Below are positions 24,627 to 35,173 of a stretch of 64,000 bases of DNA, piece after piece (positions within the stretch are counted from its first letter, which is position 1; each line of letters opens with the position of its first letter). The notes beneath the pieces were generated by a model, which worked only from the letters and a program-made list of their open reading frames with translations, ran no database searches and was not told the origin of the DNA. Origin of the DNA: Acidobacteriota bacterium. GTDB taxonomy: Bacteria; Acidobacteriota; Blastocatellia; Pyrinomonadales; Pyrinomonadaceae. Both the position numbers and the translations under genes were made by a program. Where the stretch lies: contig JAJPKD010000147.1 of NCBI GenBank assembly GCA_021323895.1, positions 81 through 64,080 on the forward strand, given 5' to 3'.

Positions 24627-27386
24627 CTAGTTTGCAAATTCCTCTCGATATCTTTCCCACTGCGATTTCTGTTCGGCCATGAACTGCACAAACTCGGGCG
24701 CTTTTCTGATGCGATCTAGATAGGGATCGCGCGCAAAGAGTGGATAGTTGGGGAAGCCAGTCCCGGCGGTTTCTTTCAACCACTTGACCGCTTCGCTGCT
24801 ATTGCCACCGAGTGCGTAGATGCAAGCCGCGTCGTATGTAAAGTGATGGCGATCCTCGCTTGGAGGAACGCGCGCCAGGATTTCCGGAACCTTTGCTTGC
24901 GCCGCCCTGAAGTTGCCCCTGAGAGCCTGAAGTATGGCTTGCAGAAGTAAGAGATAATCGTTGTCTGGTCGTTTCTTCGTCAAACGCTCTTCAATTAGCT
25001 TTTGAGCTTCATCGAGCTGCCCTTTTCGCAGGTAATACCAGGGGGAATTTTCATCGTCATCAAAAGAGTAATCGGGAATCTTTTGACATTCAGCAATCAA
25101 GCCATCAGGATCGGCGCGCAGGTAAGCCAGGATATAAGGGATTGCCTTAAGGCTCTGGCTGGTCGGATTGATTTCGATCGACCGCCTAAATTCCTGCAGG
25201 GCAAGATCATCGAGTCCCACATGACCATACTGCGCTGCAAGGTCGGGTGTCGCGACGTTTGGATTGAGTTGCCTCGCCAAACGTAACTCGCGAATCGCTT
25301 CTGCATTTTGGTAGCCTTCGTATGAACTCCAAAGCAATAGACTACGGGCAACGTGAGTTTCTGCCAGACTGGGATTGAGTTCAGCTGCTCGTTTGATCTC
25401 TGCCCGCGCCAAATCCGCCCACTTCGGCTCTTCTGGCTGAATAAATGACGCAGTCCACGCGTCTGCGAAGGCCAACTGAGCGTGGGCCAGCGCATACCCC
25501 GGATCAATCTCGATCGCCTTCTTGAAAAAGTTCATGGTGTCATTCATTTGAGGCATGGCGGTTTTGTCATAGCCGTGATGGTCCAGACTAATGACTCCTC
25601 TGATGTATGCCTCGTAAGCGCGCGGGTCGGTGGGATAGCCCTCCTGCGAACCAGCCCGTTGCGCCGAATCGAAATGAGGTGCCAGCCGAGAAGCAACCTG
25701 TTGTGCTACTTTATCTTGGATCGCAAACAGGTCCGACGCCGTCATGTCAAGATTATCCGAATAGATCGAGGCGCCATCGCTGCTGCGCAGCAAGTTAACA
25801 GTCACGCGCAAACGATCGCCGGCGCGTTGCACAGTTCCTTCCAGGACCGCGTCGGCGCTTAGCTCCCGACCGGCCGACAAACTATCGGTATCACCTTTTG
25901 CGTACTTTAAGACAGCGGTCATGGGTCGGACGGTTATCTTTCCAGTCTGACTCATTTTCCTGATCACCGCATCGGCAATACCCACGCCCAGAACGTTGTC
26001 CCCCAAATCGAGCGACTTAAGAGGTAACACCGCAAGCGAGCGAATCTGCGATGGTCCCGCTGCCGCTGCTGTCGGGTGCTTCAGACGCCATCCATAAACC
26101 GCTACCGCGGCGACAATCGCGAGGGACACCAGGGAGGCTATCGCGATTGCGCCTCGTCTATGTGACTGGACCTGGTGAGTGATGGATCGCGAGCTGAAAC
26201 TTGTCTTGGTTGTTCTGCCGGCGCTGGATGATCCGGCAGCTTGGTGGGCCGTCAGCGCAGCCGTTTCCGTGGGACCGGCTTTATTGATCGTCTCAAGCCG
26301 CAGCGCCTGTTGTAGCTCTTTGAGGTCTGCCAAAAGATCCTGACTCGTTTGATAGCGCTCTTCCCTGTTCTTAGTTAATGCCTTCTGCACGACCGTATCT
26401 AGGCGCACCGATTCTTCATCGGCGTCGTTCTTTAGCGAAGCAGGAGTCTTCTCCAAAATCGCTGCGAGGACTTCATCCGATGTCGTCCCAACAAACGGCG
26501 ATGCGCCGGAAATCATTTCGTACAAGATGACGCCGAGACTCCAAACATCGGTGCGGGCATCAACGATGTCGCCGCGTGCCTGCTCGGGCGACATATATGC
26601 AACTGTGCCCATCATTGTCCCGGCGCTGGTCTCGAAGAGCGAGCGCGTCCCGTCTTCATGGTCTTCGTGCGCTGCGAGGTTGTGCGACTCGCGCCCGTCA
26701 ATTTTGGCGAGCCCAAAGTCCAGCACCTTCACCAAACCGTCGTCATGTCGAATCATGATGTTCTCAGGTTTGACATCGCGGTGGACCACGTTCACCCGGT
26801 GAGCTGCGACCAGCGCCGAAGCCACTTGAACAGCAATCTCCAAAGCATCGTCGATACTGATGTCGGTGTGCAGCCGCTCGCGCAGCGTCTGGCCTTCGAT
26901 AAATTCAGTGGCGATGAACGGATGGCCTTCGGCTTCACCAATCTCGTGGATCGTGAGGATGTTGGGATGGTTCAGGACTGAAGCTGCGCGCGCCTCAAGT
27001 TCAAAGCGCTGCTGCCATTCAGGATTAGAGGTGAAGCGGTTGGAAATGAATTTCAGGCAAACTCTTCGATGCAGCTTCGTATCCTCGGCGAGATAGACTC
27101 GGCCCATTCCTCCCTCGCCGAGCAGCGAGAGGATCTTGTAATGCGCCACGAGTTGGCCATCTTTCAACCTCGCGCTGTCGATTAACATCTCTGCAGCCGC
27201 TTCGTACTCCGGTTCATCGAGAAAATGGTTTGTCTCTTTGTGAGATTCCAGCAGGGATTCGATCGATTGTCGTAACGCATGGTCACCCTCGCTTGATTGT
27301 GCGATGAATGCCGCGCGTTCATGTTCCGGCAGGGCTAGTGCCGCGTGAAAGATCTGCTTAAGGTTTTCCCAGTTGTCGTCCGCCAT
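24627..27386 (-). CDS. Ser/Thr protein kinase with TM segment, periplasmic TolB-N/FlgO-like region and C-terminal TPR repeats
   Basis: 919 aa. Hanks kinase motifs are present: GEGGMGRVYLA, HRDVKPENIM, DFGLAK, YMSPEQ. One TM helix is followed by helical repeats. Confidence 0.85.
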   Translation of the reverse strand: MADDNWENLKQIFHAALALPEHERAAFIAQSSEGDHALRQSIESLLESHKETNHFLDEPEYEAAAEMLIDSARLKDGQLVAHYKILSLLGEGGMGRVYLAEDTKLHRRVCLKFISNRFTSNPEWQQRFELEARAASVLNHPNILTIHEIGEAEGHPFIATEFIEGQTLRERLHTDISIDDALEIAVQVASALVAAHRVNVVHRDVKPENIMIRHDDGLVKVLDFGLAKIDGRESHNLAAHEDHEDGTRSLFETSAGTMMGTVAYMSPEQARGDIVDARTDVWSLGVILYEMISGASPFVGTTSDEVLAAILEKTPASLKNDADEESVRLDTVVQKALTKNREERYQTSQDLLADLKELQQALRLETINKAGPTETAALTAHQAAGSSSAGRTTKTSFSSRSITHQVQSHRRGAIAIASLVSLAIVAAVAVYGWRLKHPTAAAAGPSQIRSLAVLPLKSLDLGDNVLGVGIADAVIRKMSQTGKITVRPMTAVLKYAKGDTDSLSAGRELSADAVLEGTVQRAGDRLRVTVNLLRSSDGASIYSDNLDMTASDLFAIQDKVAQQVASRLAPHFDSAQRAGSQEGYPTDPRAYEAYIRGVISLDHHGYDKTAMPQMNDTMNFFKKAIEIDPGYALAHAQLAFADAWTASFIQPEEPKWADLARAEIKRAAELNPSLAETHVARSLLLWSSYEGYQNAEAIRELRLARQLNPNVATPDLAAQYGHVGLDDLALQEFRRSIEINPTSQSLKAIPYILAYLRADPDGLIAECQKIPDYSFDDDENSPWYYLRKGQLDEAQKLIEERLTKKRPDNDYLLLLQAILQALRGNFRAAQAKVPEILARVPPSEDRHHFTYDAACIYALGGNSSEAVKWLKETAGTGFPNYPLFARDPYLDRIRKAPEFVQFMAEQKSQWERYREEFAN

Positions 27387-27431
27387 TCAATTATTACTGC
27401 GTTAAATCAGGGCAAATCCTCTAACGGATCT

Positions 27432-27998
27432 TCAGGTGTGGTTCATCTGACTCTTCAGCCATGCGCGCGCGAAGGCCCAATCGCGCATCACCGTGCCGGG
27501 AGAGACTTTTAGTAATTCGGCAGTCTCGTCGATGCTAAGACCGCCGAAAAATCTCAACTCGACAATCTTACTTTGACGCGCATCGACGGCCTCCAACCGT
27601 TGCAAGGCTTCATCAACTGCAACCACGTTCGCTGCCTGTTGTTGCATGAGATTCTCAACCTCATCCAACGGCACCTGAATCAGGCTGCCGCCGCGTTTTG
27701 CTGAGTTTCGCTTGCGGGCGTCATCGACCAGGATCCGCCGCATTAGACGTGCTGCGATCCCGAAGAAATGCGCGCGACTCTCCCATTCTATCCGCGGCTG
27801 ATCGACCAGGCGCAAGTACGCTTCGTTGATCAAAGCAGAGGTTTGCAGCACATGACCGGCACTTTCGCGGCGCATGTGCCGGTGGGCCAGCCGATGCAGC
27901 TCGTCATAAACCAGCGGCGTTAACTGCTCCAAAGCGTCCTCGTCGCCTTCACTCCATTTTCGCAGCAAAAAAGTTACATTCTCAGGCACGATGGTCAT
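27432..27998 (-). CDS. ECF sigma factor (Sigma70_ECF / TIGR02999-like)
   Basis: 188 aa. LLRKWSEGDEDALEQLTPLVYDELHRLAHRHMRRE is characteristic of this ECF family. The region 4 HTH is LSIDETAELLKVSPGTVMRDW. It lies directly upstream of the kinase. Confidence 0.8.
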   Translation of the reverse strand: MTIVPENVTFLLRKWSEGDEDALEQLTPLVYDELHRLAHRHMRRESAGHVLQTSALINEAYLRLVDQPRIEWESRAHFFGIAARLMRRILVDDARKRNSAKRGGSLIQVPLDEVENLMQQQAANVVAVDEALQRLEAVDARQSKIVELRFFGGLSIDETAELLKVSPGTVMRDWAFARAWLKSQMNHT

Positions 27999-28090
27999 TA
28001 GAGGTTTCTAGTCCGATTTGCGCATTAGTCAGTAGAGATTAATCCGATTGAGGGCAAGTTTCCACAGTTCAATTCCGGGAGAGGGTTACC

Positions 28091-30226
28091 ATGCGAGCAA
28101 AATCAACACTTACCGCATTCTTCGCGTTAGCACTTTTCAGTTTTGTTGCCATTCAACCAACGAGCGGGCAACGACTCCCTGTGAGACCCCATCCTCAAGT
28201 TCCGGACGGCCCGCCAAAGAGTGAACAGGCGCGACCTCAGGCGCCGACGAGCTTATTGGAGATTGCCAGCGGCTCCAAACGTAGTATTGCTCAATCGAAC
28301 GGGCATGGCCCGAGTCGCAGAGGATTTGTTGATGGCACTGAGGGCTTGAAGCGACTTCAGGAAAAACGAGGCGAGCGGCTCAGCCTGCAAGCAATGCAAA
28401 ACACAATTCCTTTCTGGTCGGACAGCTTCACTTATCAGGGACTCGAATTTAAGTACAAGATGGTCGGCACCGATCCGAAAAACGGCTCACGAACGACCGT
28501 CATCCCCACTGTGATCATTCCCCTCAGATTCGTGTTTCCGGACGGGCACGTTTTCGATGCGAGCACCGACATCGTTGATGGGCAGACACCGATTCAGGGC
28601 ATCATCAATTCACCGATTTTCCAAAACTATCATTTCATACTGGGCGGAACTGATGTTGGGAACACTCAATACGGCGACGCTTTCCAGCGTGCCAATTTTT
28701 GGGACTCGGTCTCGACGCGGGGCAGGAACTATCACGTTCTGCTGGGCCAGCCGACGGTGCTGCCGACGCAGACGATAATTGTTCCCGCGGGCATGGGCAC
28801 TTATTATTACGACCCATTTGTGGGAGACACACTCCCACTGGTGAACGAGAATTTTCTCAATTCGCAAGAATACTCAATCCGCGCCTCGCTAAACCTGTCG
28901 CCGCGGTCACTGGCGATTACGGTGTGGGGTTCGGTGTTGGGTGAGGACCCATCATTTCCTGGCTTTCCTGCAGCGGGCGGATGGCACGGCGCACAATCGT
29001 CGAATGGCGGAGTCCTTGCCTACATAGGCACAAGTTATTTCCCTGATTTGGAGATTGATCCCCGGGGAGACGACATCTATTCCTTGAGTCACGAAATAGC
29101 CGAATGGATGGATGATCCGTTCATCGATAACTTCACGCCCGGATGGAACATCCCGTTTATTGAACCACGAGAACGATGCGATAGCGGTTGGATTATCCGG
29201 GGCTTACTTGAAGTTGGTGATCCGGTTGCGTTTTTCACGGACGCTGTCGTAGCGCTTCCAAGCTCAGGCTTCACTTATCACGTGACCGAAGCAATGTTCA
29301 TTGACTTCTTTACGAGATCCGCCCGTTCGCGTTCAGTCAACGGGCAATACAGCATGTTCACGATGGGCGCGCCTTTCGGATTACCAAGCGAGCCGTCAAC
29401 TCAATGCATCGGCAGCGTTCAAGCAGCGGAACAGTATATCGATTTTCCGGGTTCAATCAGGACGGAGGCGCGAGGAATTAATAACCATAACGAGGTGGTC
29501 GGCTTCTACGTCGATCAACGACCGAGTTATCGCGGGTTCGTATGGGCGAATGGCTCGTTTAGCGCGCTTGATTTTCCGGGCGCGATTGGGACCGTGCCGT
29601 CAAAAATAAACGACTCTGGCGAGGTTGTCGGATACTTCTTTGATACAAGCGGTACACCGCACGGATTTTCCTACACAAAGGGACGATGGACTCGCATAGA
29701 TTTTCCTGGCTCAGCGGATTCGCTTGCGTTAGGAATAAATTCGGCGGGAGACATTGTGGGCGAGTTCGATCACAATCAACCCATTACTCATGGGTTCGTT
29801 CTGCGTAACGGACAATTTGCCAAAGTCGATACGCCGTTCGGCGAACAGTCATCATTAAGGGGGATCAATGATGCCGGGACTCTGGCGGGGTACACGTGGA
29901 GCGACCCTTTCAATGGTCCGTACTTTGGAGTGCTTAGCCGCAATAACGAGTTCTCGCTCATCAATATGCCCGGCGCCACGTTTACCCTTCCCAACTCCGT
30001 AAACAATGGCAGCCTGGTCACCGGCACATTCATCAATGGCAACGAGAACTACGCGTCCGGTTTTGTTCGCCTGTTCGGCTATCTCCACGAAGTGAATGCC
30101 GGTCTCTCCGTCACTTACGTCTCCGACGGGAACGACCATAATCGGATCGTAGGAAGAGCATTCGACTTCAGTCGGAGCCGCTGGGTCGGATACATCGGCG
30201 ATTTACCAATAACAAAATCACGATAA
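28091..30226 (+). CDS. secreted protein with C-terminal HAF-like repeat (beta-propeller-like) region
   Basis: 711 aa. It has a signal peptide. The C-terminal half repeats G(I)N..G..VG.......HGF......F..LD.PG about 5-6 times. The N-terminal half is unassigned. Confidence 0.6.
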   Translation: MRAKSTLTAFFALALFSFVAIQPTSGQRLPVRPHPQVPDGPPKSEQARPQAPTSLLEIASGSKRSIAQSNGHGPSRRGFVDGTEGLKRLQEKRGERLSLQAMQNTIPFWSDSFTYQGLEFKYKMVGTDPKNGSRTTVIPTVIIPLRFVFPDGHVFDASTDIVDGQTPIQGIINSPIFQNYHFILGGTDVGNTQYGDAFQRANFWDSVSTRGRNYHVLLGQPTVLPTQTIIVPAGMGTYYYDPFVGDTLPLVNENFLNSQEYSIRASLNLSPRSLAITVWGSVLGEDPSFPGFPAAGGWHGAQSSNGGVLAYIGTSYFPDLEIDPRGDDIYSLSHEIAEWMDDPFIDNFTPGWNIPFIEPRERCDSGWIIRGLLEVGDPVAFFTDAVVALPSSGFTYHVTEAMFIDFFTRSARSRSVNGQYSMFTMGAPFGLPSEPSTQCIGSVQAAEQYIDFPGSIRTEARGINNHNEVVGFYVDQRPSYRGFVWANGSFSALDFPGAIGTVPSKINDSGEVVGYFFDTSGTPHGFSYTKGRWTRIDFPGSADSLALGINSAGDIVGEFDHNQPITHGFVLRNGQFAKVDTPFGEQSSLRGINDAGTLAGYTWSDPFNGPYFGVLSRNNEFSLINMPGATFTLPNSVNNGSLVTGTFINGNENYASGFVRLFGYLHEVNAGLSVTYVSDGNDHNRIVGRAFDFSRSRWVGYIGDLPITKSR

Positions 30227-30551
30227 CGGAGGTTAACCAGCTGGACCTGCAACAATCGAAAGCGACCAACAAACGTCCGGTCAACATGAATTTTGAGGAA
30301 GGAAGAACCCCTTAGACTAGTGGCCTTCCCCCGTCGCGCAGTTTGAGTTCTTAGCCCAGTTCTTCGAGTGATGACCACCCGCCACCTGAACGCATGATCC
30401 GAACTCAGATTGTGACGAGGGAGGTTTGACGTTCAGGTGCACCGGGAATTCCCAAATACTTCCGCGAAACTTTCACGCGCGAAACGAAGACCAACTCAGT
30501 TGGGCGATTTTGGTTGTAAGCAGGCAGCTACCAATAAACTATTGTGAAGGT

Positions 30552-30637
30552 TGGTGCCGAGGGCGGGAGTCAAACCCGCACCCTCTTACGAGAAACGAAT
30601 TTTAAGAGCGTTGTCGAGGGGCAACACTTAGTCGGGC
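30552..30637 (-). pseudogene. degenerate tRNA-Leu(UAA)-like remnant; only the 3' half is tRNA-like
   Basis: The reverse complement ends ...CTCTTAAAATTCGT...GCGGGTTTGACTCCCGCCCTCGGCACCA. The acceptor 3' strand and CTTAAAA loop are shared with the intact tRNA at 61814-61899. The 5' half cannot pair (3 of 7 acceptor positions mismatch), and the T-loop reads TTTGA instead of TTCGA. Confidence 0.55.
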
Positions 30638-30806
30638 GAAACGATATGAGCCAGTATTTACGCGCCTCGCGGTCGTAAAAAGATCCCTAGGTTTGGCTTC
30701 ACATGAACCTCGTGCAAACGCTCTTGTTTCATCTCGGTCGCAAACGGTCACAAATTGCATGGTCGGAATGTTTCTTCCCGGCTGCGCCGTCAATTCCATG
30801 GGCTTA

Positions 30807-31115
30807 CTAATTGTCCTTCATCGTCTCAGGGGATTTCATACTGTCTGACTTCGTCATATTCGGCTTCTTCATCGAGTCTTTCTTCATCATCATGTTCCGC
30901 TTATGCATCATGCGGCGATGACGCCGGCGCATTCGATGGCGGCGCATCATGCGATTGCTCTTCATGTTGCTTTTCATCATGCTGGGCGACTTCATTTGAT
31001 CGCTCGACATGTTGCCGTTCATGTTGTTGTTTTGGGCGCTGGCGCTGGCGGCCGTAAAGCTCAAGCACGCCAGCAACGCCATCACCATCAGTACACTTCG
31101 TTTGATTTTCTTCAT
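30807..31115 (-). CDS. secreted methionine/lysine/arginine-rich small protein (MrpX-like by composition)
   Basis: I chose the ATG at 31115 because GGAGG lies 5 nt upstream. The signal peptide is MKKIKRSVLMVMALLACLSFTAASASA. By my count the predicted mature region of about 75 aa contains 18 Met, plus many Lys, Arg, Asn, Ser and His. Confidence 0.65.
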   Translation of the reverse strand: MKKIKRSVLMVMALLACLSFTAASASAQNNNMNGNMSSDQMKSPSMMKSNMKSNRMMRRHRMRRRHRRMMHKRNMMMKKDSMKKPNMTKSDSMKSPETMKDN

Positions 31116-31176
31116 TCGTTCCTCCATATCACTCGTTAGTTTGAAACTTCTTCGAGTCAGGTCTCCACGTCACGCC

Positions 31177-31205
31177 TGTAATTTGTAGGCCGCTCAGACG
31201 ACTAA
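31177..31205 (+). promoter_or_regulatory. promoter-like motif TGTAATT-N15-CGACTAA (variant copy)
   Basis: It lies in the divergent intergenic region, 142 nt upstream of the ECF sigma start at 31347. It has the same spacing and -10-like box as the four TGTAAGG copies. Confidence 0.4.
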
Positions 31206-31346
31206 TACCCGGTTGAGGTCTGTTTATTCCCGAAACAGAAAATTCGGAAGTGATATTGTTCCGTGAAGCTGGAATAAAACCGCCGCTGATTGGTATTTAC
31301 CCAGTGGTAGGGAAATCGGGAGGATAAGCGTCAGCGGTCCGACTTA

Positions 31347-31964
31347 ATGTTCAGGCTTTCCCGAGAAAAGAGACGGCTGGAAGACTGGGCTTCGTTCGAA
31401 AGCGAAGCTCTGCCTTTCCATGTCGATCTCTATCGTTTGGCCAAGTGGCTGCTGTGGGATCAGAGCGAGGCGGAGGACTTGGTGCAGGAAACTTTTGTGG
31501 CGGCGCTCAAATCGTTCCACCGCTACGAAAAGGGAACGAACTGCCGCGCCTGGCTGATCAAGATCATGTATCGCACCCTGAGCAAGCGCCGTCGGACTTC
31601 TGATCGCCTCCGCGTTGTAAGCGATGCGGATGAGCCGATTGAAGACAGAGTCGCCGCGCTGCCTGCGAGATCGTCGGATGCGATTGCAGAAGAAGTTCTG
31701 AATGCCCTCAAGCGCCTGCCGCGGCATTACCAGGAAGTGGTGATCCTGTCGGACGTTGAAGACATGACTTACAAAGAAATTGCCGAAGCGTTGTCGATTC
31801 CCACCGGAACAGTGATGTCGCGCCTCCATCGCGGGCGGAGTTTGCTGCGAGGAGAGTTGGCGAATTATGCCCGTTCGTATGGCATTGGCGTCGTGAAAGA
31901 AAGCGGTGAGTCGAAATTAAGATTGGCGGACGCGGCCGAAGGAGGGAAATCAAATGCACTGTGA
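31347..31964 (+). CDS. ECF sigma factor
   Basis: 205 aa. Region 2 is AEDLVQETFVAALKSFHRYEKGTNCRAWLIKIMYRT and region 4 is VILSDVEDMTYKEIAEALSIPTGTVMSRLHRGRSLL. It overlaps the downstream anti-sigma gene by 11 nt. Confidence 0.85.
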   Translation: MFRLSREKRRLEDWASFESEALPFHVDLYRLAKWLLWDQSEAEDLVQETFVAALKSFHRYEKGTNCRAWLIKIMYRTLSKRRRTSDRLRVVSDADEPIEDRVAALPARSSDAIAEEVLNALKRLPRHYQEVVILSDVEDMTYKEIAEALSIPTGTVMSRLHRGRSLLRGELANYARSYGIGVVKESGESKLRLADAAEGGKSNAL

Positions 31965-32817
31965 TGATTTCCGGGTAATCGCCGATTCGTATCTCAGCGA
32001 CGAATTGCTGATTGAAACGAACCACGACGTGATTCGTCACCTGGATTCGTGCGCCAATTGTCGATTTGAGTTGGCTGGACGCCGCCAACTGCGTCATCGG
32101 TTGAAGATCCAATTCAATGAGTCTGCCGCCTTGCGGATCCGTGAAGGATTTGCCGCCGGCCTCAAGTTGCAGTTGCGCGATCAAGCTTTGGGCCGTCCCA
32201 GAATCGCGATCCCGCGGTTTGCCTACGTGGGAGTTGCCGCGTCCATTTTGATAGCAGTCGCCGTTGGAATCCTGGGGTTGCAGAGTTTGCGCAACAGCCG
32301 CAGGGAACTGCTTGCGTGGACGAATTTGACTGAGAGCGCGATTGGCGATCATCGCGAGTGCGCGGTGGAACACAGGCTGGCACCGACGATTATCAGCCTC
32401 GACGAAGCGGGGCGAACCTACGATCGCGCGTTTGCAAATTTGGCGAGCGCCGTCTCATCGGAAGGCGTTTTGCCCGCGGGCGCGCAACTGTTGGACGCTC
32501 ATTCTTGTATGTTTCAGGGCAAGCGATTCGCGCACTTCGTCGTGAAGTACCATGACCAGATTGCTTCGGTGCTGGTTGCCAAAGTTGACGCGCCAAACAG
32601 TCGCGCGCCCAGACCTGAACCCGGCCAACTCGTGAAAGGCTTCGACGCGAATTCCTATCGCATCGCATTTTTTCAGACATCGAAGCACGCGGGCTTTGTC
32701 GTCTCGGGAATGAACGAAGCTGACAATCTGGCGATTGCGCGAAGCGTCGCGCCCGCGCTCGAGAAACAGATCCGGCGCGCCGAAGAAAACGTTGAAGCGC
32801 GCGCCTTCAAGTGGTAA
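31954..32817 (+). CDS. zf-HC2 (ZAS) anti-sigma factor, single TM, extracytoplasmic C-terminal domain
   Basis: 287 aa. The N-terminus has the H-x3-C-x2-C motif (RHLDSCANC). A TM helix ([18 protein letters not shown]) is followed by a domain of about 180 aa. Confidence 0.75.
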
Positions 32818-32830
32818 GAAAGGGAAATCA

Positions 32831-33868
32831 ATGCATCGACAAAACATCATTGCTGCAGTCATGCTGATCGTAATTGGCGTCGCCGTTGTTGCGACGGGAT
32901 ACGCGAAAGGCTGGGGGCCGTTAGGCGTTTTGAATGTCGGTATGTCGCGGATTGTTAATGGCGCAGACGCCGGAGTAGTCATTCCCATGACAAATGAAAC
33001 GAAAGCGGCGGTTGCGCCTGAGCTAATGGGCGGTACCTGGATTAATTCCGATCCGCTAACTTTGAAGAGTCTTCGTGGACGCGTCGTGGTAGTCGATTTC
33101 TGGACGTTCGGTTGTTACAACTGCCGGAACACTTTGCCATCAGTCAAGAGTTGGGATGCGCGCTATCGCGACAAGGGTCTGACAATCATCGGAGTGCACA
33201 CGCCAGAGCTGCAGTCTGAGCGCAACCTCGACAACGTGCGTCGCGAAGTCGCCGAACTCGGCATAAAATATCCAGTCGTTACAGATAACGACAATGCCAT
33301 CTGGAATGCGTACGGTGTTGAGGCGTGGCCCACCTGGTTTGTCGTTGACAAGCAGGGTCGCGTGCGCGGGATGCACGTGGGCGAAGGCGCCTATGACGAG
33401 ACCGAACAACTGATTAAGAAATTGTTGGCTGAGGGCGATAACCAGCAGCAGTCAGAGAAGGAAACTATGACAGACAAGGTAGAAAAGACCGACGCACAAT
33501 GGCAGAAAGAATTAACTCCAGATCAGTTCTATGTTTTGCGGCAAGCTGGAACCGAGCGCGCTTTCACCGGCGCGCTTTGGGATAATCACGAGCACGGCAT
33601 TTACTACTGCGCGGCTTGCGGACTCGCCCTGTTCAAGTCGGAAACGAAATTTGATTCCGGAACTGGTTGGCCTAGTTTTTACGCGCCGATCTCAAAAGCA
33701 AACATTATCGAGGACAGCGATCGCAGCCTGGGCATGGTGCGCACGGAAGTGCGGTGTCATCGGTGCGGCTCGCATCTCGGACACGTTTTCGATGACGGAC
33801 CGCAACCGACCGGATTGCGCTATTGTATGAACTCAGTTGCGTTGAAGTTTGAGAAGACCGAAGAGTAA
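32831..33868 (+). CDS. msrB: membrane-anchored thioredoxin-like (TlpA/ResA-type) domain fused to methionine-R-sulfoxide reductase MsrB
   Basis: I chose the ATG at 32831, after AAGAAAGGGAAA. The protein has a TM anchor, the Trx motif WTFGCYNC, and an MsrB domain with Zn CxxC pairs ([17 protein letters not shown]) and the catalytic GLRYCMNS. The track ORF starts earlier, at 32735, inside the anti-sigma gene. Confidence 0.85.
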
Positions 33869-33957
33869 GCGCGCGTCCGTCAGAACCAGGAGCGGTAGCG
33901 GCCGGATCGGGAATTCACAGCCGCGTCAACGAACTCTTCGCGACTGCCAACTCGAAA

Positions 33958-34137
33958 TCACCTCACGGCAAAGAAATAGATCACGCCGGCAGCCACAATC
34001 AAAGAAACCGCAATTAGCACTCCCGCGACCACTCGCTCGATCATCGTTTCGGCTTCCACGTTCATCGCGCAGCGAGGACAGCCGCGCGCCTCCGCGTCAA
34101 GCAGATAACCACAATCCCGACAGGGCTTTTCGTTCAT
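33958..34137 (-). CDS. small zinc-ribbon plus TM protein (59 aa)
   Basis: Hand translation gives MNEKPCRDCGYLLDAEARGCPRCAMNVEAETMIERVVAGVLIAVSLIVAAGVIYFFAVR. It has two CxxC pairs and one TM helix. It falls below the 60-aa cut-off of the ORF track. Confidence 0.4.
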   Translation of the reverse strand: MNEKPCRDCGYLLDAEARGCPRCAMNVEAETMIERVVAGVLIAVSLIVAAGVIYFFAVR

Positions 34138-34222
34138 CGCTTTCTTGTCGCCTTCAGGTGCTGAAGGCGATTTTTCCTTTTGCTGCGAAACCCAACCTGA
34201 ACTAATCTAGAGGAGACTCAAA

Positions 34223-34825
34223 ATGAGCCAGGCTCAACTCAAGCCCGACGCGCCGTCGCCTGATCCGGGCCGATGGCTTGACGAACACGGCGACTATCTT
34301 TTCAAGTACGCGAGTTTTCGACTGCGTGACGATAACGCCGCTGAAGATGCAGTGCAAGAGACTTTTCTAGCCGCTCTGAAAGCCTACGAAAAATTTGAAG
34401 GGCGAGGATCGGAGCGCACGTGGCTGGTCGGAATTCTCAAGCACAAGATCATTGACCACATTCGGAAAGCGCAGCGCGAAGCTCCGATCGGTGAGGACGT
34501 CGACGAAGGTCCTGATCATGGTGAGTTTTTCGAAAGAACTGATCAATGAACAGGCCATTGGGACGCGAACCACGCGCCCACGGATTGGCACGCGACGCCG
34601 GCCGAGTTGATCGAGCGTAGCGATTTTTGGGTGGTCTTCAACGATTGTCTGTCGCCGCTACCGCAGCGGACCGCCAGCGCCTTTACGCTGCGTGAAGTGG
34701 ACGGCCTGAAGAGCGAAGAGATTTGCGAGATTCTGAGTATTAGCGTAAACAACCTTTGGGTGATGCTGCATCGCGCGCGCTTGCACCTGCGAAATTGTTT
34801 GGAGATGAACTGGTTCAAGCGTTAG
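34223..34825 (+). pseudogene. ECF sigma factor interrupted by a single in-frame TGA (34547-34549)
   Basis: Region 2 (34223-34546: AEDAVQETFLAALKAYEKF...TWLVGILKHKIIDHIRK) and region 4 (…FTLREVDGLKSEEICEILSISVNNLWVMLHRARLHLRNCL) lie in the same reading frame. Only one TGA separates them (…FFERTDQ*TGHWDANHAP…). Confidence 0.7.
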
Positions 34826-34858: not shown

Positions 34859-35173
34859 ATGGCGTTGAAAGCGTACGAGAAACTAAAGCATGCGATCCGG
34901 TATTGGCTTTTGCGGAAGCTGCCCACCTGTCAGCAAACCGTCGAGAAGATCTCACAATCAATGGAGCGCAAGCTGACGCTGCGCGAGCGGATCGATGTCA
35001 AACTTCATCTCTGGATCTGCGCGTGGTGCCAGTGGTATCTGGAACACCTGCAAATCATTCGCGAGACAGCGCGCGCGAAAGGCGCTGAATCTTCCGATCT
35101 TGAATCCGTGAGCCCGTCACTCTCTGCCGACGCCCGCGAACGAATCAGGCGGAAACTCGCCGGCGAGAGTTAG
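34859..35173 (+). CDS. small zf-HC2 (ZAS-motif) putative anti-sigma factor
   Basis: 104 aa. It carries H-x3-C-x2-C (LHLWICAWC) and sits directly downstream of the sigma gene. It is a paralog of 36734-37042. Confidence 0.6.
   Translation: MALKAYEKLKHAIRYWLLRKLPTCQQTVEKISQSMERKLTLRERIDVKLHLWICAWCQWYLEHLQIIRETARAKGAESSDLESVSPSLSADARERIRRKLAGES

Follow-up and report, generated by a model that had tools for sequence, protein, structure and literature searches.

A 64,000-nucleotide stretch of contig JAJPKD010000147.1 from an Acidobacteriota bacterium of the family Pyrinomonadaceae (the window) carries, at positions 30807–33868, the gene of a Met-rich secreted peptide and, facing away from it, a three-gene operon for an extracytoplasmic function (ECF) sigma factor, a zinc-binding anti-sigma (ZAS) factor and a fusion of thioredoxin (Trx) with the methionine sulfoxide reductase MsrB. 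Judged by its gene content, promoter motif, conservation and export signals, which are described below as found, the locus is probably a module specific to the Pyrinomonadaceae lineage that is controlled by an ECF sigma factor and defends the cell envelope against methionine oxidation. The features of the locus are as follows.

30807..31115 (-): Met-rich peptide gene, 102 aa; signal peptide residues 1-27, mature peptide 75 aa
31121..31125 (-): GGAGG ribosome-binding site of the peptide gene, 5 nt 5' of ATG 31115, read from the sequence
31205..31230 (-): GGAATAA-N14-GGTAT, ~90 nt before the peptide ATG; putative ECF promoter for the peptide gene
31271..31296 (+): GGAATAA-N14-GGTAT, 50 nt before the sigma ATG; putative ECF promoter for the sigma operon, autoregulatory
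31347..31964 (+): ECF sigma factor, SigH/SigR-like, 205 aa; Pfam Sigma70_r2 and r4_2
31954..32817 (+): single-pass ZAS anti-sigma factor, 287 aa; C3, H29, C33, C36; transmembrane segment residues 89-107
32831..33868 (+): N-terminally anchored Trx-MsrB, 345 aa; anchor 6-24; Trx ~58-207; MsrB ~211-341
34147..34171 (+): terminator-like hairpin and T-run, the nearest one following Trx-MsrB and a possible end of the operon transcript; consensus scan only

This layout agrees with the original prediction, an earlier note on this DNA, in each of its parts. The small minus-strand gene with a GGAGG ribosome-binding site and a clear signal peptide is present in coordinates and sequence, and a recount of its mature region of about 75 residues again gave 18 Met. 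The divergent three-gene operon begins with an ECF sigma factor, in which both sigma-70 regions were found; the single-pass ZAS anti-sigma factor has the expected motif and a single hydrophobic segment, and its gene overlaps the sigma gene by 11 nt. The membrane-anchored Trx-like domain (WTFGCYNC) is fused to a complete MsrB, as seen from its motifs and a TIGR00357 score of 192.9 bits.

The Met-rich secreted peptide

The mechanical open reading frame (ORF) of the peptide spans 30807..31127(-), with a likely start at the ATG at 31115, and public gene calls also give a protein of 102 aa. The signal peptide is MKKIKRSVLMVMALLACLSFTAASASA. Met makes up 24% of the mature peptide (18/75) compared with 2.1% in the long ORFs of the window, and when all six frames of the window were scored, the top-scoring 75-aa segments fell exclusively within this ORF. 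The mature peptide further contains 21 Lys and Arg, 3 His and no Cys, with 26 of its 75 residues being Lys, Arg, Asp or Glu. Met recurs about every 5 residues, and pentad Met repeats flank a basic R/H/K-Met core.

The MXKDX model for the MrpX/BcrX type of peptide (TIGR02953) matches the window peptide with 23.4 bits (E = 4e-5) and thus below its curated cut-off of 41; the peptides of relatives score 20.9–35.3 bits or do not match at all, and a composition of such low complexity leaves homology to the MXKDX family undecidable by score. The analogy to MrpX/BcrX is strong and lies in the features that the peptide has in common with the MXKDX type: it is small and charged, has a signal-peptide-like N-terminus, about 20% Met or more and pentad Met spacing, and adjoins an ECF sigma/anti-sigma pair and a methionine sulfoxide reductase gene, with a common promoter motif detected in silico. 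A homology search with the peptide in 5.8 billion proteins returned 2 matches only, because the peptide is of low complexity and fast-evolving. Plain homology search being uninformative, its relatives were detected by position and composition in 72 related loci (labelled L below), which are species-level, were fetched by alignment of the anti-sigma factor and come from relatives named Pyrinomonadaceae or Blastocatellia. No tRNA was found in the region downstream of the peptide gene.

The shared promoter motif

The motif GGAAT(AA)...GGTAT emerged when the regions in front of the sigma genes of the related loci were searched for k-mer pairs. The form GGAATAA-N(13-17)-GGTAT has exactly 2 matches in the 64 kb of the window, both with a 14-nt spacer, against 0.02 expected from shuffles, and the two copies point away from each other within the 231-bp intergenic region, each towards one of the transcription units. 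In the 72 related loci the exact motif occurs in 42 copies, compared with 0 in 20 Markov simulations. The genes downstream of matches with at most one mismatch are those of the sigma factor (34), a secreted Trx or Trx-MsrB (11) and DUF1223 (3), and the motif precedes Met-rich peptide genes in 7 species, among them L004, L012, L019, L025, L076 and L078. No sigma-70-like promoter was predicted in the region 30500–34300. The motif resembles what we take to be the SigR/SigH consensus, GGAAT-N17/18-GTT. Co-regulation of the peptide gene and the sigma operon by one ECF sigma factor is thus a well-supported prediction.

The motif stands before DUF1223 genes, which encode secreted proteins with a CxxC motif, at the sites L007 580-1489, L019 5288-5313 and L032 1092-1117. 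Their position behind the ECF motif in three species would place DUF1223, an uncharacterised family, in the envelope redox regulon.

A one-mismatch form of the motif (mostly GGAATAAA...GTTAT) stands before the gene of a secreted protein of ~517 aa with VWAVG-type repeats (L014 1066-2723, L021, L024, L030, L033, L061 and L075). In five such loci this gene adjoins a member of a further neighbour cluster; by visual inspection, the L014 member of that cluster has a LuxR-type helix-turn-helix at its end. The arrangement suggests that in one subclade this sigma family has another output.

The sigma factor and its membrane-spanning anti-sigma factor

The best NCBIfam match of the sigma factor is TIGR02947 SigH_actino (123.8 bits, under its cut-off) and the best PDB match is SigH of M. 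tuberculosis (104 bits). All named best matches are of the SigH, SigR or SigE types, which argues against membership in ECF16.

The sigma and anti-sigma genes are conserved as a pair in 72/72 loci. In the anti-sigma factor the zinc-ligand motif C3...H29-x3-C33-x2-C36 is followed by the only hydrophobic segment of the protein. The zf-HC2 family (PF13490) scores 20.2 bits against a Pfam cut-off of 22.2, and many homologues carry a precomputed PF13490 assignment. C3, H29, C33 and C36 are invariant in 30 homologues with 45–100% identity, and their spacing, Cys-x25-His-x3-Cys-x2-Cys, presumably equals that of C11/H37/C41/C44 in RsrA. The extracytoplasmic domain (residues 108–287) has D132-H133-x2-C136, H183-S184-C185, H194 and H245 invariant in the same homologues. 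The outer domain thus equals the ZAS domain in its number of invariant residues, among which are two Cys and four His. From this pattern we infer that the anti-sigma factor may sense the periplasm through the Cys/His cluster of its outer domain. An outer domain with such a two-Cys/multi-His cluster would be previously undescribed.

Single-sequence and profile searches of the PDB gave no meaningful relatives of the anti-sigma factor, and its AlphaFold2 model has a moderate mean confidence (pLDDT 67). An RseB/MucB-like fold was indicated by a weak Foldseek match (E ~1e-3, TM-score ~0.25), which is not used here as functional evidence. The comparison with NrsF, proposed in the original prediction, came out negative. 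An anti-sigma factor of the NrsF type, whose Pfam family we take to be DUF1109, would have six helices, and the protein encoded here has one hydrophobic segment and zf-HC2 as its sole Pfam match. As the NrsF architecture is absent, the locus is probably not a member of the ECF16/NrsF family.

The Trx-MsrB fusion and its predicted export

The public call gives Trx-MsrB a length of 345 aa, and the mechanical ORF begins further upstream, at TTG 32735. Besides WTFGCYNC, the protein contains two zinc-binding CxxC pairs and the catalytic motif RYCMNS. Its MsrB domain lies well above the TIGR00357 cut-off of 113 and scores 176 bits with SelR, and the Trx half matches the Pfam families Redoxin, AhpC-TSA and Thioredoxin_8. 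The recycling Cys is absent from the window MsrB (GTGWPSF), making it a 1-Cys subtype, and is likewise lacking in every examined MsrB of the regulon (G-T/S-GWPSF where the motif was found). The sulfenate of a 1-Cys MsrB is reduced directly by thioredoxin, and this requirement fits the fusion with Trx.

The best PDB match of the Trx domain is the C-terminal domain of M. tuberculosis DipZ (136 bits), followed by the Trx-type proteins SOQ1, NHLRC2, YkuV and ResA; the DipZ C-terminal domain and ResA are extracytoplasmic reductants. Relatives have stand-alone MsrBs beside the sigma gene, in which an N-terminal hydrophobic stretch ends in a lipoprotein-like Cys (...AVSAC|T, ...LISGC|S). Together with the N-terminal segment 6–24, the likeness to DipZ and ResA, the Tat-exported MsrP in the operon and the CcdA neighbours described below, these lipoprotein-type MsrBs are consistent with an outward-facing, membrane-anchored Trx-MsrB. 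Pfam and NCBIfam scans detected no MsrA (PMSR) domain in the fusion, and the MsrA signature GCFW occurs nowhere in the 64-kb window. The protein therefore shares with the PilB type an N-terminal Trx fused to an Msr and a predicted export, and lacks the MsrA domain of that type.

Conservation of the peptide and its replacement by Met-rich thioredoxins

Conservation of the Met-rich ORF beside the sigma, anti-sigma and msrB genes had been named as a check on the original prediction, and the peptide gene is indeed kept in all close relatives examined, always divergent from the sigma operon. Listed by anti-sigma identity, the peptide-bearing relatives are L076 (84%), L077 (67%), L078/L079 (61%), L004 (59%) and L012 (47%). 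Their peptides of 87–99 aa have the same position and architecture and contain 20–30% Met. In this common architecture the signal peptide is followed by an AQN start and Met pentads, then by a basic core (such as RMMRRHRMRRRHRRMM) and finally by a Met/Lys tail; the R/H/K core is kept in six species. In the peptide alignment, Met columns are 74% conserved compared with 55% for the other columns.

Analogous MxKDx-like secreted peptides are found in the more distant loci L019, L025 and L048, and the motif stands in front of two of the three. In another dozen loci, the divergent, motif-preceded position of the peptide is taken by a secreted thioredoxin (IRADWCxxC) with a Met-rich N-terminal linker and often a terminal Met run such as MNSMMMMMKHG. 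The linker of this thioredoxin family is 34% Met (117 members), and the family has 273 database matches in all, every source-named member being annotated generically as a thioredoxin-type protein. The following Pyrinomonadaceae genes are examples.

L005 2558-3052, L009 4629-5111, L010 4558-5067 (-): secreted Met-rich WCxxC thioredoxins in the sigma-divergent position
L016 4590-5063, L052 4724-5257, and others (-): further Met-rich WCxxC thioredoxins in the sigma-divergent position

A Met-rich polytopic membrane protein is encoded next to the genes of a Met-rich thioredoxin and Trx-MsrB at L041 757-1218(-) and L054 694-1161(-); its similarity to DUF6789 is weak (20 bits, under the cut-off).

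Regulon content across related loci

The neighbours of the sigma/anti-sigma pair were clustered without bias and then scanned with Pfam and NCBIfam. The recurrent partners of the pair were as follows, and a YggX-like protein was also recurrent.

Trx or Trx-MsrB: 39/72 loci
MsrP-like molybdoenzymes with Tat signals: 29/72 loci
Cytochrome b561: 20/72 loci
MsrB: 19/72 loci
DUF1223: 7/72 loci
MsrQ (Ferric_reduct): 6/72 loci
CcdA (DsbD_TM): 5/72 loci, adjoining Trx genes

The presence of Msr, Trx and CcdA families among these partners indicates that the predicted theme of the regulon is extracytoplasmic methionine sulfoxide repair and thiol redox, so that the link to MrpX/MsrP rests on gene content as well as on analogy. 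In L004 the peptide gene is divergent from an operon that encodes, in this order, the sigma factor, the anti-sigma factor, Trx-MsrB, MsrP (465 bits against a cut-off of 207) and MsrQ (156.5 bits against 130). L078 and L079 have the same layout, in the order sigma, anti-sigma, Trx-MsrB, Oxidored_molyb and Ferric_reduct. At this site msrPQ are absent from the window, L076 and L077, and no msrP, msrQ, ccdA, DUF1223 or Met-rich Trx gene was found anywhere in the 64-kb window (msrPQ being searched with tblastn). To judge from these operons, MsrPQ and Trx-MsrB can replace or supplement each other across the lineage as outputs of one sigma factor. As the window contains no CcdA, MsrP/Q or MsrA signature, repair of the S epimer and the supply of electrons would be encoded elsewhere or be absent.

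At L016 7648-9551, in L036-L047 and in others, 20 loci in total, the anti-sigma gene is followed by that of cytochrome b561 (Ni_hydr_CYTB). A divergent gene in these loci encodes an MsrP-like molybdoenzyme with 85 bits to the MsrP model (under the cut-off), and MsrQ is not used. Cytochrome b561 and the MsrP-like protein may form an alternative electron-donor pairing for a YedY-like reductase.

Comparison with known systems

The closest precedents for a sink peptide are the ECF16 systems SigF/NrsF-YedY1Z1(MsrPQ)-MrpX of Azospira suillum (PMC4436054) and BcrS/AbcS-BcrXQP of Brucella melitensis (PMC8315932). MrpX accumulates, is oxidised by HOCl and is re-reduced in vivo (PMC4436054), two divergent copies of one ECF promoter were shown experimentally for bcrS and bcrX (PMC8315932), and NrsF has six helices and two conserved periplasmic Cys (PMC3511200). 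As in both systems, an ECF sigma/anti-sigma operon is here divergent from the gene of a secreted peptide with ~20% Met and a periplasmic methionine sulfoxide reductase is predicted to be co-regulated; as with BcrS, one promoter motif stands before both units. Like NrsF, the anti-sigma factor presents two conserved extracytoplasmic Cys, and in sister species the operon includes true msrPQ genes, as in the SigF/NrsF-MsrPQ system. In contrast to the SigF/NrsF systems, the sigma factor is SigH/SigR-like and paired with a single-pass ZAS anti-sigma factor, and the peptide, which scores under the MXKDX cut-off, has a separate transcription unit. Unlike in the MsrP systems, the thiol-based Trx-MsrB is used instead of the molybdoenzyme or, in relatives, beside it, and the host belongs to the Acidobacteriota rather than the Proteobacteria.

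The general logic proposed at the outset, a secreted Met-rich peptide and an exported Msr under ECF control in the manner of MrpX/MsrP, is supported by the shared motif, the conservation of the peptide, the exported-type MsrBs and the msrPQ genes of sister operons. The claim that the reductase is Trx-MsrB rather than MsrP stands for the window locus and some relatives and fails for the lineage as a whole, where sister operons carry msrPQ. Independent assembly, also suggested as a possibility, is compatible with the regulators, which are unlike SigF/NrsF; it was too broad for the reductase side, which is not an independent invention, since msrPQ lie in the same operon of sister species.

ZAS-controlled exported reductases are known from Neisseria (SigE/MseR with the Trx-MsrAB protein PilB) and Haemophilus influenzae (RpoE2/HrsE with MsrAB) (PMC2893595, PMC7907618). 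Haemophilus RpoE2 is induced by HOCl and H2O2, and HrsE is a cytoplasmic peptide of 67 aa that has been grouped with the peptide anti-sigma factors of Neisseria and Streptomyces (PMC7907618). The locus resembles these systems in the control of an exported, thioredoxin-dependent Msr by an ECF sigma and a ZAS anti-sigma factor, and the Neisseria reductase is also a Trx fusion. It differs from the RpoE2 system in the Met-rich sink peptide, of which the RpoE2 paper makes no mention (PMC7907618). Unlike HrsE, the anti-sigma factor spans the membrane and has a conserved outer domain of 180 aa, and unlike the Neisseria and Haemophilus MsrAB proteins, the reductase has no MsrA domain.

Extracytoplasmic reducing pathways include CcdA-Etrx-MsrAB2 of Streptococcus pneumoniae, ResA of Bacillus and DipZ of Mycobacterium. 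As in these, an anchored, outward Trx-like domain is predicted to feed an extracytoplasmic Msr, and CcdA lies beside Trx genes in 5 loci; unlike in CcdA-Etrx-MsrAB2, Trx and MsrB form one polypeptide, no CcdA is encoded in the window and a dedicated ECF sigma factor is in control. The closest characterised sigma factors are those of Streptomyces SigR-RsrA and Mycobacterium SigH-RshA. The SigR/SigH systems use a promoter of the GGAAT...GT type and have Msr and Trx genes in their regulons. RsrA and RshA are soluble and sense through cytoplasmic thiols, whereas the anti-sigma factor described here is membrane-spanning and all identified outputs are extracytoplasmic.

Proposed mechanism and alternative explanations

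We infer the following inducing signal, release mechanism, scavenging role and electron path. At rest, the SigH/SigR-like sigma factor would be held at the membrane by the ZAS domain of the single-pass anti-sigma factor. An oxidant, likely HOCl, a chloramine-type or another Met- and Cys-oxidising species, would inactivate the anti-sigma factor, its likely target being the invariant Cys/His cluster of the outer domain and, less likely, the cytoplasmic zinc thiolates. The freed sigma factor would then fire the two back-to-back GGAATAA-N14-GGTAT promoters, one driving the sigma, anti-sigma and Trx-MsrB genes and the other the Met-rich peptide gene. Exported by Sec, the peptide would take up oxidant as Met sulfoxide on its 18 Met in 75 residues. 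The outward-facing Trx-MsrB would reduce the R-sulfoxides, with the sulfenate of the 1-Cys MsrB resolved by the fused CYNC thioredoxin domain, and the electrons would come from a membrane transporter of the CcdA/DsbD type encoded elsewhere in the genome. MsrPQ is a further product of this operon in sister species. MsrP is reported to reduce both sulfoxide epimers and MsrB the R epimer only (bioRxiv 10.1101/243626).

Several observations weigh against this interpretation. MsrB would leave the S epimer unrepaired, and with no MsrA signature, MsrP, MsrQ or CcdA in the window a complete redox cycle of the peptide cannot be assembled from it. The peptide scores under the TIGR02953 cut-off and its strongly basic R/H core is not accounted for by a role as a sink. 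The model of the anti-sigma factor is of moderate confidence only, and the positive-inside count for the anchor of Trx-MsrB is ambiguous, 1 versus 1. A Met-rich secreted product lies near the sigma gene in only 17/72 related loci, and L013 and L072 retain the divergent promoter without a Met-rich gene.

A broader proposal, which we put forward tentatively and regard as rather doubtful, is that the Pyrinomonadaceae possess a modular envelope system for methionine and thiol redox in which the ZAS outer domain senses the periplasm, the outputs are interchangeable and thioredoxin closes a feedback loop. The outputs would be free Met-rich peptides, Met-tailed thioredoxins and 1-Cys Trx-MsrB or lipoprotein MsrBs, and further MsrPQ or MsrP-like/cytochrome b561 pairs, CcdA and DUF1223. 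For the feedback, the Cys/His cluster may be kept reduced by the thioredoxins of the regulon.

Handling of copper or another soft metal is an unlikely function of the locus. The peptide and the Met-tailed thioredoxins would bind Cu(I), the Cys/His cluster would sense the metal and Msr would repair collateral, copper-catalysed oxidation. Such a role would fit the Met- and His-rich composition of the peptide and the invariant Cys and His residues clustered outside the membrane in the anti-sigma factor, and periplasmic copper chaperones bear Met/His-rich tails. Periplasmic Cys mediate the response of NrsF-type systems to chromate and cadmium (PMC3511200), and in E. coli a link has been reported between MsrPQ and both copper stress and the repair of CusF (PMC9302797). 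However, the mature peptide has 3 His only and no Cys, and the 20–30% Met at pentad spacing seen in the peptides of this lineage matches the MrpX/BcrX type, for which scavenging of oxidants has been demonstrated. Efflux ATPases, multicopper oxidases and proteins of the Cus and CopC/D types are absent among the identified recurrent neighbours, several recurrent clusters being without identification.

Equally improbable is a regulon for the repair of envelope proteins whose peptide does not act as a redox-cycled sink; the peptide would instead be a reporter or decoy ligand, its oxidised form being sensed by the anti-sigma factor or competing for Msr, or a polycationic protectant of the membrane or cell wall. 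The conserved basic R/H/K core in six species, which a pure sink leaves unexplained, points in this direction, as do the repair of the R epimer alone within this window and the dedicated outer domain of the anti-sigma factor with its weak RseB/MucB-like fold match. The Met-rich thioredoxin linkers that replace the peptide nevertheless lack the basic core, indicating that the shared element is Met density, and the precedent of MrpX favours scavenging.

A third alternative concerns the input and not the output of the locus. In a cytoplasmic disulfide switch of the SigR/RsrA type, C3, C33 and C36 would sense the oxidant and the outer domain would be structural. We consider this very unlikely, although the zinc-ligand spacing is presumably that of RsrA, all four ligands are invariant, the sigma factor is SigH/SigR-like and the periplasmic MsrAB of both Haemophilus and Neisseria is governed by a soluble ZAS protein. 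The outer domain is equally rich in invariant residues and all identified outputs are extracytoplasmic; moreover, many membrane ZAS anti-sigma factors are insensitive to redox. The idea that the Met-rich ORF is non-coding or arose by chance, as its low complexity and the 2 matches in 5.8 billion proteins might suggest, is effectively refuted by its GGAGG ribosome-binding site, signal peptide and dedicated conserved promoter, by an architecture kept in more than 6 species despite sequence divergence, and by its being called as a gene in public assemblies.

Implications

To our knowledge, Met-rich sink peptides with a periplasmic Msr have been shown experimentally in a few Proteobacteria only, and always with SigF/NrsF and MsrP. 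A search of the literature for ECF sigma/anti-sigma pairs with a methionine sulfoxide reductase in Acidobacteria found none. An envelope defence module as proposed here would extend the same strategy to abundant soil Acidobacteria with a different regulator and with the thiol-based Trx-MsrB alongside or instead of MsrPQ. Such convergence on a sink, a reductase and an ECF switch would argue that bacteria in general, and not the Proteobacteria alone, use Met to buffer oxidants in the envelope. The direct fusion of Met-rich tails to the reductant would, if true, be a new design principle for oxidant sinks. The analysis also provides a defined promoter motif, a predicted small regulon and a candidate extracytoplasmic redox-sensor domain.

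Other genes around the locus

Between Trx-MsrB and a second ECF sigma gene lies a 59-aa ORF (33958-34137(-)) with two zinc-ribbon-like CxxC pairs and a hydrophobic segment at the C-terminus. It matched none of the families, and ORFs of 61–68 aa occupy the equivalent position in L004 and L078. The second sigma gene, 34223-34825(+), is followed by its own zf-HC2 anti-sigma gene at 34859-35173 and has an in-frame TGA at 34547-34549. The near-identical public contig L001 has TGG (Trp) at that site, from which the TGA of the window differs by a single G-to-A change at 34549, and public calls of this sigma factor give an intact protein of 200 aa. Given TGA here and TGG in L001, the second sigma gene of the window is either a pseudogene or a variant of the strain, unless the TGA is an error in the sequence.

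The upstream region 24627-30226 contains the gene of a 919-aa Ser/Thr protein kinase (-), an ECF sigma gene at 27432-27998(-) and, at 28091-30226(+), the gene of a 711-aa secreted HAF-repeat protein. The region is thus dense in ECF-type regulators, with three sigma genes within 8 kb.

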